Below are positions 59,499 to 64,000 of a stretch of DNA of 64,000 bases, piece after piece. The position numbers and the translations under genes are program-made. The stretch is from NCBI RefSeq assembly GCF_013167455.1, contig NZ_CP038328.1. One strand, given 5' to 3'. The notes beneath the pieces are model-generated. The model was not told where the DNA came from. It was given only the letters and a program-made list of their open reading frames with translations, and ran no database searches. Numbering within the stretch: position 1 is the stretch's first letter; every line of letters starts with the position of its first letter. This stretch comes from Escherichia coli O157:H7 (GTDB lineage: Bacteria; Pseudomonadota; Gammaproteobacteria; Enterobacterales; Enterobacteriaceae).

Positions 59499-59592
59499 AA
59501 TATACAAAATATTTATTAATCTAATTATGGTATTTATATTTGGAATGCATTAATAATTTAATAATCTCACGTTTTTTTAAACGACTAATTAT

Positions 59593-59606
59593 TTGATTGT
59601 TATCAG
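59593..59606 (+). promoter_or_regulatory. FNR-like site (TTGAT-TGTT-ATCAG) upstream of the molybdoenzyme operon
   Basis: 9 of 10 matches to the FNR consensus TTGAT-N4-ATCAA, in the AT-rich leader 56 nt upstream of the start. Confidence 0.4.
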
Positions 59607-59661
59607 CATTGTTCTCGAATAAATACGTGAATATTTATTTTTTCATTTTCGGGAACGCAAG

Positions 59662-62043: not shown

Positions 62044-62669
62044 GCCAATTTAAAGAATTTGCATCTGTCAGCGACAAACAATTAGGGTTCTTTATTGACT
62101 CTTCGCGTTGTTCGGGCTGTAAAGCGTGTCAGGTGGCCTGTAAAGACAAAAACAACCTTGAGGTTGGGCGACGTTTTCGCCGCGTGTATGAAGTGAACGG
62201 AGGTGGCTTCATCGCCACTGGAGAGGGCGGTGTGAGTCATAATGTCTTTGCTTATACCCTTTCTGTTTCCTGTAACCATTGCGCGGATCCGATCTGTACC
62301 AAAAATTGCCCGACGATGGCGATGCATAAGCGTCCCGGAGACGGTATTGTGCGCGTGAATACTGATAAGTGCGTCGGTTGCGGTTACTGCGCCTGGTCCT
62401 GTCCTTACGGCGCACCACAAATGAATGAGCAGACCGGGCAGATGTCGAAATGCGATTTCTGTATTGATCTGCAAGCTAAAGGAGAACAACCCATTTGCGT
62501 GGCAACGTGCCCGTTGGGGGCGATTAAGTTCGGCCCTATTGATGAGTTGCGTGAAAAGTATGGCGATGTCAGTGATGTGAAAGGTTTACCTGATTCGTCG
62601 ATTACGCAGCCAAATCTGGTGATTAAACCGCATCAGGGCGCGGAAAAGGAGGCGTCACATCATGCATGA
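62040..62669 (+). CDS. 4Fe-4S electron-transfer subunit (DmsB-like)
   Basis: 209 aa; four Cys clusters; start overlaps the upstream stop (ATGA). Confidence 0.88.
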   Translation: MSQFKEFASVSDKQLGFFIDSSRCSGCKACQVACKDKNNLEVGRRFRRVYEVNGGGFIATGEGGVSHNVFAYTLSVSCNHCADPICTKNCPTMAMHKRPGDGIVRVNTDKCVGCGYCAWSCPYGAPQMNEQTGQMSKCDFCIDLQAKGEQPICVATCPLGAIKFGPIDELREKYGDVSDVKGLPDSSITQPNLVIKPHQGAEKEASHHA

Positions 62670-63483
62670 ATTACCGTTAATGGCTTTTACGCTGTTGTTA
62701 CAGGCATCGGTCGGTATGACGTTGTGGCTGGCGTTTCTTCATCGTCATATTTTAATCACCTCCAGCGCCCGCCCGGTTATGCGGCCGCCATTACTGTTGG
62801 CTTTTTTGGCAGGTGCCGTAGGGTTACTGATTTCTACCTTACACCTGGGTTATCCACTTAATGCGATGCATGCGCTGAGCCACTTTTCCAGTTCATGGCT
62901 GAGTCGGGAAATTATCTTTGGTGCGCTGTATCTGGCGCTATTGGGTTTATCCACATTACTGGTCATGTTACGCAAAGGCGGCTGGCAACTCCTGCTTATG
63001 CTAGCGGCAGTGGTCGGGATTGTTGATGTTTTCTGCATGGCGCAAGTTTACATCCATACGTCGATTATCACCTGGCAGCATTACAACACGCTGATTATGT
63101 TCTTAGGTACAGTGGGAATTCTCGGTTCAGCGCTGGTAGCAGTGTTTCGTATTAGCGGAATTTTGCCGCAGATTGATGCCCTGCGTAATGGATGCGTGTT
63201 GGTGATCGCTCTCCTGGTTCTGCTGCGTTTGTTGGTTCAGCCGTTGTGGATAGGGGATTTAACGGCAAATGCGATGCAGATAGCCACATTGCCACATGCG
63301 CCATTAGCGATGCTGGGACAGTTAAAACCCATACTGACACTAAGCTGGGGAATTTCCGTCATTGGGATGATGTTCTTTGCTGTCGGTGGTTGTAAAAAGA
63401 ATATCCCGGCGGCGTTATTCGGTAGCGTAATGCTAGTGGGGAGTGAAGTTATGCTGCGTTTTGTCTTTTTTAGTATCGGCTAA
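62662..63483 (+). CDS. Membrane anchor subunit (DmsC-like)
   Basis: 273 aa, hydrophobic multi-pass; AAAGGAGG Shine-Dalgarno; start overlaps the DmsB-like stop by 8 nt. Confidence 0.8.
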   Translation: MHELPLMAFTLLLQASVGMTLWLAFLHRHILITSSARPVMRPPLLLAFLAGAVGLLISTLHLGYPLNAMHALSHFSSSWLSREIIFGALYLALLGLSTLLVMLRKGGWQLLLMLAAVVGIVDVFCMAQVYIHTSIITWQHYNTLIMFLGTVGILGSALVAVFRISGILPQIDALRNGCVLVIALLVLLRLLVQPLWIGDLTANAMQIATLPHAPLAMLGQLKPILTLSWGISVIGMMFFAVGGCKKNIPAALFGSVMLVGSEVMLRFVFFSIG

Positions 63484-64000
63484 TGTTAAGTCATAACATA
63501 ACGATTGGCGCGGAATGCGCGCGCCAACGCTTTCGTTTTGCAACATGTCATGCCTGTGTCGAGGCTTGCCCGGCACAGGCGCTAACGCTGACAGAAGAGG
63601 GCATAGCGGTCGACGCGGAACAATGTATTGATTGTGCGGTTTGCCAGTTTATTTGTCCGCAAGAGGCTATTCGTGGCGTTAATTCCCCTTTACGTTATTT
63701 TTGCAATCACACCCTGGTCGCACCTTTCACCACTATTGCGCCGACGCTGGAAGAACTTTTGCTATGGCATAAAGAGCAGGGGATCACAGCGATCGCGATT
63801 GATCTGAGTCAGGCGAAGGCATGGGAGCGCGCATTATTGCTGTTAAACGAATGCTTACGGCAATATGGCGAGGAAGGCTGGTCTGTGGTATCTCCACATA
63901 CCAGTGAGGTGAATGTTTCCCGGCGTCGTTTGTTCCATGTGCAGCGTGCGGATGTTCAGATGACACAAATACAACCAGGATTACGTCGGTTACATTATTT
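63483..64000 (+). CDS. Ferredoxin-like protein with a C-terminal domain of unknown function (3' end lies outside the window)
   Basis: ATG overlaps the DmsC-like stop (TAATG); open frame to the window end; motifs C-x9-C-x2-C-x3-CP and CIDCAVCQFICP; not listed in the ORF track because no stop is reached. Confidence 0.6.
   Translation, partial: MLSHNITIGAECARQRFRFATCHACVEACPAQALTLTEEGIAVDAEQCIDCAVCQFICPQEAIRGVNSPLRYFCNHTLVAPFTTIAPTLEELLLWHKEQGITAIAIDLSQAKAWERALLLLNECLRQYGEEGWSVVSPHTSEVNVSRRRLFHVQRADVQMTQIQPGLRRLHY

Follow-up and report, generated by a model that had tools for sequence, protein, structure and literature searches.

The window analysed here, a stretch of 64,000 nucleotides from Escherichia coli O157:H7, ends in an operon of four genes, named A to D in this study, which follows the core gene pbpC and encodes a predicted respiratory molybdoenzyme of the DmsABC type. 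All coordinates refer to the window unless a locus is named, and all features are located on the plus strand. In the list of open reading frames (ORFs), pbpC (57186..59498) is followed by an AT-rich intergenic promoter and leader region of 163 bp with 22% GC (59499..59661) and then by A (59662..62043), B (62040..62669), C (62662..63483) and D (63483..64000). Family models identify A as a catalytic subunit of 793 aa of the DmsA/YnfE subfamily with a molybdenum bis(pyranopterin guanine dinucleotide) cofactor (Mo-bisPGD), B as a DmsB-type electron-transfer subunit of 209 aa and C as a membrane anchor of the DmsC family with 273 aa. D encodes a polyferredoxin, of which the first 172 of 284 codons are present before the gene is cut by the window end. 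Adjacent ORFs overlap by 4 bp (A/B), 8 bp (B/C) and 1 bp (C/D, TAATG), and translational coupling of A-B-C-D is plausible from these overlaps.

The region 59300-64000 is 100% identical to the complete genome of strain ECP19-598 (NZ_CP066753), in which the full length of D (284 aa) and the position of ndk 140 bp downstream were read. In K-12 MG1655 and the K-12-like strain EV36, ndk directly follows pbpC with a spacer of 148 bp. A preliminary description of the window, made from its letters, had listed the AT-rich leader, four translationally coupled genes, a molybdoenzyme with a signal for twin-arginine translocation (Tat), DmsB-like and DmsC-like partners, a ferredoxin-like protein and a K-12 map on which ndk comes directly after pbpC; this anatomy was borne out at every point. 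It had also considered that a K-12 reference might carry these genes between pbpC and ndk, which is not the case in MG1655, and that the structure might be a misassembly or chimera, which is ruled out by its recurrence in 379 complete genomes.

A matched the model TIGR02166 (dmsA_ynfE) over its full length with 1122.2 bits at a cut-off of 777.7, but remained far below the protein-specific cut-offs for DmsA (NF011566, 704.7 vs 1600 bits), YnfE (NF041885, 667.6 vs 1675 bits) and YnfF (NF041884, 692.3 vs 1650 bits). Comparison with the paralogues, as the preliminary description had proposed, gave identities of 45% to DmsA, 42% to YnfE, 44% to YnfF and 83% to the Salmonella protein. The nearest solved structures are Rhodobacter DMSO (dimethyl sulfoxide) reductases, which match residues 106-792 at approximately 1e-81. 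By inspection, residues 1-39 (59662..59778) form a Tat signal peptide with the motif S16-R-R-S-F-L-Q, a hydrophobic stretch and A-K-A at positions 37-39, and the Tat motif is present in all orthologues. The alignment places the Cys group of the [4Fe-4S] cluster FS0 at C60-x4-C65-x3-C69...C101 (59839..59964); its C-x4-C-x3-C spacing is invariant among the A orthologues and one residue longer than the C-x3-C-x3-C of DmsA, YnfE and YnfF. Ser197 (60250..60252) is the predicted Mo ligand and aligns with Ser147 of DorA (residue 189 of the precursor), with Ser205 of DmsA (Ser176 in older numbering) and with the equivalent Ser of YnfE, YnfF, TorA, TorZ and BisC. In the loop that holds Tyr114 in DorA, a residue which favours S-oxide reduction, DmsA, YnfE and YnfF have Tyr next to the Tyr114 position, whereas Val or Asn is found there in the A family; the confidence of the alignment is only moderate in this loop.

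B matched TIGR02951 with 265.8 bits (cut-off 214.1), contains 16 Cys in four ferredoxin-type groups and is 56% identical to DmsB. C, which is 33% identical to DmsC, matched Pfam PF04976 (DmsC) over its full length at 1.5e-23, had no match among the NCBIfam models and comprises about eight hydrophobic segments. His60 and Glu83 of C align with His65 and Glu87 of DmsC, the residues of its menaquinol site. Anchors of the DmsC type contain no haem for transmembrane electron transfer, and their conserved quinol residues face the periplasm.

The leader contains an FNR-type box, TTGATtgttATCAG (59593..59606), which agrees with 9 of 10 consensus positions and is centred approximately 68 nt upstream of the ATG. 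Within the window the FNR-type consensus was matched 6 times at 2.2 expected matches, and a single box is not significant. However, 14 of the 18 orthologous loci possess a box with at most one mismatch at this position of the alignment and at the same distance from the Tat motif, among them loci of Citrobacter, Leclercia and Proteus with unrelated surroundings, and the box of the Salmonella operon is perfect. A weak, putative -10 hexamer GAATAT (59629..59634) aligns to GAGAAT in Salmonella and Enterobacter; its spacing would fit a class II FNR promoter with a predicted transcription start near 59641, and we infer from the conserved box that the operon is FNR-activated. A riboswitch or other RNA in the leader was rejected, as the Rfam search gave no family match at E≤1.

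The survey of the pbpC-ndk junction, likewise proposed beforehand, covered 5,426 complete E. coli genomes. The block, as operon or remnant, was present in 380 of them (7%), always in single copy and always on the chromosome, and is thus strain-variable as described. The carriers are mostly O157:H7 or O55:H7; approximately 70 further carriers from many hosts showed 97.9-99.5% identity and represent at least two additional haplotypes. One contiguous K-12-type junction with 96-100% identity was found in 5,043 genomes, and since the two junction types cover 5,423 genomes, there are just two alleles in E. coli. The left boundary of the polymorphism lies at approximately 59490, up to which every non-carrier matches the query, and on the right side K-12 homology restarts exactly at the ndk promoter block after the stop codon of D. 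At the left boundary, the last seven codons of pbpC (59475-59498, compared with 4176-4199 of the K-12-type locus L002) have approximately 50% nucleotide identity, whereas the gene upstream has about 98%, the products ending in ASVHFSFQ in carriers and ATVKFVMQ in the K-12 type; K-12 additionally has about 16 unique bases 3′ of the pbpC stop codon without a match in the block. An operon remnant inside the K-12 spacer was rejected, because the approximately 35 K-12-specific bp match nothing in the block.

Two carriers have rearranged blocks. In strain ZF8-1 (locus L084, 5156-6330) stubs of the 5′ end of A and the 3′ end of D, separated by an IS1, lie between pbpC and ndk, and in strain 4FM an IS1 is inserted into an otherwise complete block; both events are separate from the K-12-type deletion. 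None of the ORFs A to D is disrupted, either in the window or in the four Escherichia loci that were read completely, and in the approximately 120 carrier genomes listed all four products were annotated under the match. For A, B, C and D the ratio of nonsynonymous to synonymous substitution rates (dN/dS) within Escherichia was 0.06-0.08, 0-0.11, 0.11-0.16 and 0.11-0.63, respectively, compared with 0.05 for pbpC. These ratios indicate that the operon is held under purifying selection in O157:H7/O55:H7 and the approximately 70 other strains, and its genes are regarded as functional.

For the synteny analysis one genome per species was scanned, and the flanking proteins were then used as tblastn queries. 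The order yfhM-pbpC-A-B-C-D-ndk-rlmN was found in Salmonella enterica subsp. diarizonae and arizonae, and the same order from yfhM to rlmN with A to D was present in several Enterobacter, in Superficieibacter and Huaxiibacter, in one Lelliottia and in one uncultured Enterobacteriaceae genome. Escherichia E1V33 and MOD1-EC7003 also carry the operon; the contig of E1V33 extends only into the pbpC flank and that of MOD1-EC7003 only into the ndk flank. In every syntenic genus the conserved ndk promoter block (TTGTTGCTAA...TTTTAAAAAAATGTTAC) begins right after the stop codon of D. Since Salmonella, Enterobacter and other genera likewise have the operon between pbpC and ndk, it is to be regarded as ancestral, and K-12 as carrying a deletion. 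The simplest history would be that the operon is ancestral at this site in the Enterobacteriaceae and that one deletion allele arose, which is now found in approximately 93% of E. coli including K-12. This synteny corrects a published suggestion that the Salmonella operon was gained after the split from Escherichia. The four genes also occur at other genomic sites in Citrobacter, Leclercia, Cedecea, Atlantibacter, Rahnella, Proteus and others.

Protein identity between E. coli and Salmonella is 83% for A, 87% for B, 52% for C and 37% for D, and two Enterobacter species that were compared share 94%, 97%, 85% and 64%, respectively. A mosaic origin of C and D as the cause of their low identity to Salmonella was rejected, because both diverge fast in every lineage. 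Gene content differs in more remote relatives: in Budvicia (locus L036, 11244-14785) and Limnobaculum (L082, 11173-14170) D was not detected after A-B-C, and the genes that come directly next form a further, more remotely related dmsABC-like set with identities of 38-39% for A and 52-53% for B. In Photorhabdus species a homologue of A has 74-75% identity and adjoining B, C and D were not detected at a coverage of at least 50%; the operon may be organised differently there.

D contains two 4Fe-4S dicluster domains according to Pfam. An alignment of 49 orthologues revealed four Cys groups of the ferredoxin type; in the first of these, C12...C22-x2-C25-x3-C29-P, the first Cys is displaced. The alignment also showed that a central domain of approximately 120 residues (E-L-L-x-W-H, W114, L-N, W133), which has no Pfam match, is conserved and that the C terminus contains a Cys4/His knuckle (C-x2-C...C-x2-C-x2-H). 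No signal peptide was seen by inspection, the first Cys ligand being located already at residue 12. The AlphaFold model has a high confidence (pLDDT 88.8), solved structures match the ferredoxin domains only, and database names for the family are generic ('ferredoxin', '4Fe-4S binding protein'). Members were found in Enterobacterales, Gallibacterium (Pasteurellaceae), Symbiopectobacterium, Pectobacterium, Uliginosibacterium and Bacillaceae, and judged by these relatives D represents an unnamed polyferredoxin family which accompanies Dms-type operons in several phyla. Six of seven distant D homologues adjoin genes for a molybdopterin subunit, a Fer4_11 protein and DmsC, partly cut by short contigs; four of these six gene sets include a gene for a TorD/DmsD-type chaperone and two have a radical-SAM (S-adenosylmethionine) gene between D and the chaperone gene, while the seventh homologue is located between tatA/tatC and a moaA-like gene. 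In Symbiopectobacterium and a metagenome contig (L095, 3002-9889; L097, 7001-14047) the order is D-like protein, radical-SAM protein of approximately 440 aa, TorD/DmsD-type chaperone, molybdopterin subunit, iron-sulfur subunit and DmsC anchor. Such arrangements suggest a maturation module including a radical-SAM enzyme in the distant relatives.

In Atlantibacter and Chimaeribacter a gene of the DmsD family lies directly 3′ of D, and D is therefore not a substitute for DmsD; it has no similarity to DmsD and no match to the Pfam family Nitrate_red_del (DmsD/TorD). A relationship to NapF, a cytoplasmic iron-sulfur protein needed for the maturation of NapA, was detected for the N-terminal part: hhalign placed residues 6-65 of D on residues 96-158 of E. 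coli NapF, in its C-terminal domain, with a probability of 94%, and the displaced first Cys is part of this alignment. This similarity covers 58 columns and not the full length, so that D is not a NapF orthologue. Moreover, D evolves several-fold faster than A and B, as the Salmonella and Enterobacter comparisons illustrate. The missing signal peptide, the NapF-like N-terminal domain, the gene neighbourhoods and the fast evolution together favour a cytoplasmic role, and D is most likely a maturation factor for A/B.

Regarding the substrate, the Ser ligand of Mo and the subfamily of A point to an S-oxide, an N-oxide or an oxyanion of the selenate type. The replacement of Tyr by Val or Asn in the A family may be taken as a hint away from a DMSO-like substrate. 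The Salmonella counterpart would be STM2530-STM2527, which we take to be the pbpC-ndk operon from the gene order of strain LT2. The preliminary description had rightly cautioned that the substrate cannot be read from the sequence. The operon is not unexplored: STM2530-2527 has already been mutated and complemented with no DMSO phenotype, and STM2530 in trans did not restore DMSO-dependent anaerobic growth (bioRxiv 10.1101/2022.11.29.517730). The substrate is probably other than DMSO, and another S-oxide, an N-oxide or an oxyanion is likely. Neighbouring genes at the other genomic sites (Citrobacter, Leclercia, Cedecea, Buttiauxella, Rahnella, Proteus, Edaphovirga) were considered as a substrate clue and discarded, since they are unrelated and variable: they encode glyceraldehyde-3-phosphate dehydrogenase, diguanylate cyclases, a chemoreceptor, KefF, FabV and a quinone oxidoreductase. 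No conserved regulator or transporter was present beside the operons at these other sites in the loci examined.

Taken together, the operon is best read as an ancestral, FNR-activated, DmsABC-like operon that was deleted in most E. coli, with D as a maturation factor and a substrate different from DMSO, and we consider this reading as a whole to be likely. FNR would activate the operon for a respiratory molybdoenzyme, of which A would carry Mo-bisPGD, the FS0 iron-sulfur cluster and the Ser ligand of Mo. A would be exported to the periplasm by the Tat system, and B, which would carry four [4Fe-4S] clusters, would most likely be co-exported with it in the manner of DmsB and DmsA. C is predicted to anchor the complex and to oxidise menaquinol, with electrons passing from C via B to A and on to an oxidised substrate in the periplasm. 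D would remain outside this electron path and aid the cytoplasmic maturation of A/B before export, as NapF does for NapA.

Several observations weigh against this reading. A is about equally distant (80-83%) from its counterparts in Salmonella, Citrobacter and Rahnella. Between O157 and Escherichia sp. E1V33 the synonymous divergence (dS) is 0.04-0.09 in the block but 0.33 in pbpC, and windowed identity (locus L001, 1400-11000) rises from 88-92% to 96-99.5% from approximately 400 bp before the end of pbpC. This jump indicates an exchange of alleles by homologous recombination; lateral exchange has also shaped the history of the operon, which is not purely vertical, and the identity profile marks the pbpC-operon locus as a recombination mosaic. 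Near the same locus, the C-terminal part of yfhM shows 77% protein identity between O157 and E1V33, compared with 97% in other E. coli. The gene D invariably comes after C in Enterobacterales, overlapping it by a single base in E. coli, which would also suit a structural subunit present in stoichiometric amounts. The argument from the replaced Tyr depends on the moderately confident alignment of its loop. The putative correspondence to STM2530-2527 is drawn from the gene count, from an identity of 42-44% between Salmonella A and DmsA and from the LT2 gene order. STM2530 has been reported to be 43% identical to DmsA, and its complementation test used A alone in rich medium, so that according to the authors the protein may have been unexpressed or unmatched with its own B and C (bioRxiv 10.1101/2022.11.29.517730). 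Finally, activity, expression and localisation of the E. coli operon are predictions from its sequence.

The opposite history, in which the block is a horizontally acquired island of the O157 lineage and the empty site of K-12 is the ancestral state, would explain why the block is so rare in E. coli, why it is more similar than its flank between O157 and E1V33 and why A is about equidistant from distant genera. The operon genes have a GC content of 47-50% compared with 53-56% in the neighbouring genes, and their codon-usage scores are 0.57-0.66 compared with a window range of 0.59-0.78, with C and D slightly below the range; this comparison, which the preliminary description had called for, revealed only a mild difference. 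That description had termed the block accessory, which holds in the sense of strain-variable but not in the sense of acquired, because at least five further genera have these four genes between pbpC and ndk, and an island is largely refuted by this synteny. Only A to D are annotated between pbpC and ndk, without mobility genes such as integrases or insertion sequences, no tRNA was found in the block, and a search for flanking direct or target-site repeats at the borders gave none of significance. A weak 26-nt A/T-rich inverted repeat with 73% complementarity brackets the block (59556-59581 in the leader, corresponding to L001 6257-6282, and L001 11069-11094 in the ndk promoter region) and is probably a chance effect of low complexity. 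Moreover, no donor outside Escherichia exceeded 84% for A, 54-57% for C or 43% for D among the loci examined, and the identities of A and B to Salmonella are comparable to the 81% of the flanking pbpC. An acquisition is therefore very unlikely. Hardly credible is a decaying relic without current function in E. coli, which would agree with the absence of the block from 93% of the genomes, with the IS1-mediated partial deletion in ZF8-1 and the IS1 insertion in 4FM, and with the frameshifts that S. [quoted passage not shown]

A different role for D deserves more weight, although we regard it as doubtful: D could be a fourth electron-transfer subunit, which would either form a four-cluster wire at the cytoplasmic side of C or be exported along with A/B. 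Its position directly after C and its four complete ferredoxin-type Cys groups are compatible with this role, and a fusion of C and D is annotated in a single entry from Cronobacter condimenti (AlphaFold database K8A6I6, 560 aa, annotated 'anaerobic DMSO reductase chain C', the C-terminal half matching D). The fusion was set aside as evidence of physical association, since it is a single annotation and none was found among 105 homologues by sequence search; it may be an artefact of annotation or sequencing. A cytoplasmic wire does not fit anchors that lack haem and have their conserved quinol residues in the periplasm, and the C terminus of C is periplasmic by the positive-inside rule, whereas D has no signal peptide. 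The fast evolution of D also argues against a subunit and for the maturation factor preferred here, as does its location in the distant relatives, where it is set off from the structural genes and adjoins genes for a chaperone or a radical-SAM protein, tatAC or a moaA-like gene. For the enzyme itself, a third and redundant reductase of DMSO and trimethylamine N-oxide with the substrates of DmsABC would agree with the dmsA_ynfE subfamily, the Ser ligand and the FNR link shared with dmsABC; it is unlikely in view of the low score in the DmsA-specific model, the identity of only 45% to DmsA, the lack of Tyr at the aligned position and the failure of the Salmonella counterpart to rescue DMSO-dependent growth (bioRxiv 10.1101/2022.11.29.517730). 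A reductase of selenate, tellurate or chlorate comparable to YnfEFGH shares the NCBIfam subfamily (DMSO/selenate family) with A, and distant D-like proteins occur in Bacillaceae including Mesobacillus selenatarsenatis. This match is structural and concerns D only, A remains far below the YnfE and YnfF models at 42-44% identity, and no selenium-related neighbour gene was present in any locus examined, which makes such an enzyme quite improbable.

The operon encodes an annotated member of a well-known enzyme family, whose Salmonella counterpart has been studied genetically. New are the ancestral status of the operon, of which E. coli has a single deletion allele, the conservation of the FNR box, the differences of A from DmsA in the FS0 motif and the active-site loop, and the description of D as a Dms-associated polyferredoxin family. 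The locus offers a clear case of a single old deletion allele that segregates within one species. Seven periplasmic or membrane molybdoenzymes of the S-/N-oxide type are usually counted for E. coli (PMC12096835), and A would be the eighth, present in the O157:H7 lineage and not in K-12. If its substrate is an oxide from gut or host, the enzyme could contribute to colonisation by O157:H7 and non-typhoidal Salmonella, and the D family offers a tractable target for studying the maturation of Tat-exported iron-sulfur molybdoenzymes. More tentatively, and with appreciable doubt, A-B-C-D may form a distinct and widely conserved subclass of the DmsABC type, characterised by the C-x4-C spacing of FS0, the lack of the active-site Tyr, a gut-relevant substrate other than DMSO and the dependence on a dedicated cytoplasmic polyferredoxin D, whose family accompanies Dms-type operons in Enterobacterales, Pasteurellaceae, Betaproteobacteria and Bacillaceae. 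If this were true, a niche-specific respiratory or repair function would be the reason why O157:H7 and non-typhoidal Salmonella have kept the operon and why K-12 and typhoidal serovars have lost it.

In the remainder of the window, the statement that this is the only clearly accessory block agrees with the annotation of the first 50 kb, which consists of ordinary K-12 core genes. There, yphC (approximately 29188-30282), whose product belongs to the zinc-dependent alcohol dehydrogenase family, is listed as a pseudogene because of an internal stop codon; it lies inside the otherwise intact yphH-yphA sugar-transport cluster.

Among known systems, Salmonella STM2530-STM2527 is closest, with A-B-C and a fourth iron-sulfur gene located between pbpC and ndk in those S. 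enterica loci that were examined, although its C and D have strongly diverged from those of E. coli. With E. coli DmsABC the operon shares a Tat-exported Mo-bisPGD subunit with FS0 and Ser ligand, a four-cluster B subunit, a DmsC-family anchor with His and Glu quinol residues and an FNR-dependent promoter, which is predicted for the operon. It differs from DmsABC in the identities of only 45%, 56% and 33% for A, B and C, in the DmsA-specific model that A does not reach, in the C-x4-C instead of C-x3-C of FS0, in the Val instead of Tyr in the active-site loop, in the lack of the 'RSWPPG' insertion of DmsA and in the additional gene D. The selenate/tellurate reductase paralogue YnfEFGH-DmsD of E. 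coli belongs to the same subfamily and has the same types of subunits; A is 42-44% identical to its catalytic proteins, and the operon has one catalytic gene instead of two, contains D and has no linked gene for DmsD. D resembles NapF as a polyferredoxin of predicted cytoplasmic location that is encoded with a Tat-exported molybdoenzyme, but NapF comprises 164 aa, whereas D comprises 284 aa with a central domain, a second dicluster domain and the Cys4/His knuckle. The dmsABCDE operon of Haemophilus influenzae differs in its DmsA, reportedly an enzyme of the DmsA type for which S-/N-oxide substrates are known, but encodes a NapF-like iron-sulfur protein, DmsE, besides the chaperone DmsD (PMC8340005). 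By this description, it shares an extra iron-sulfur gene with the operon and is comparable to the arrangement of A-B-C-D plus DmsD in Atlantibacter and Chimaeribacter.

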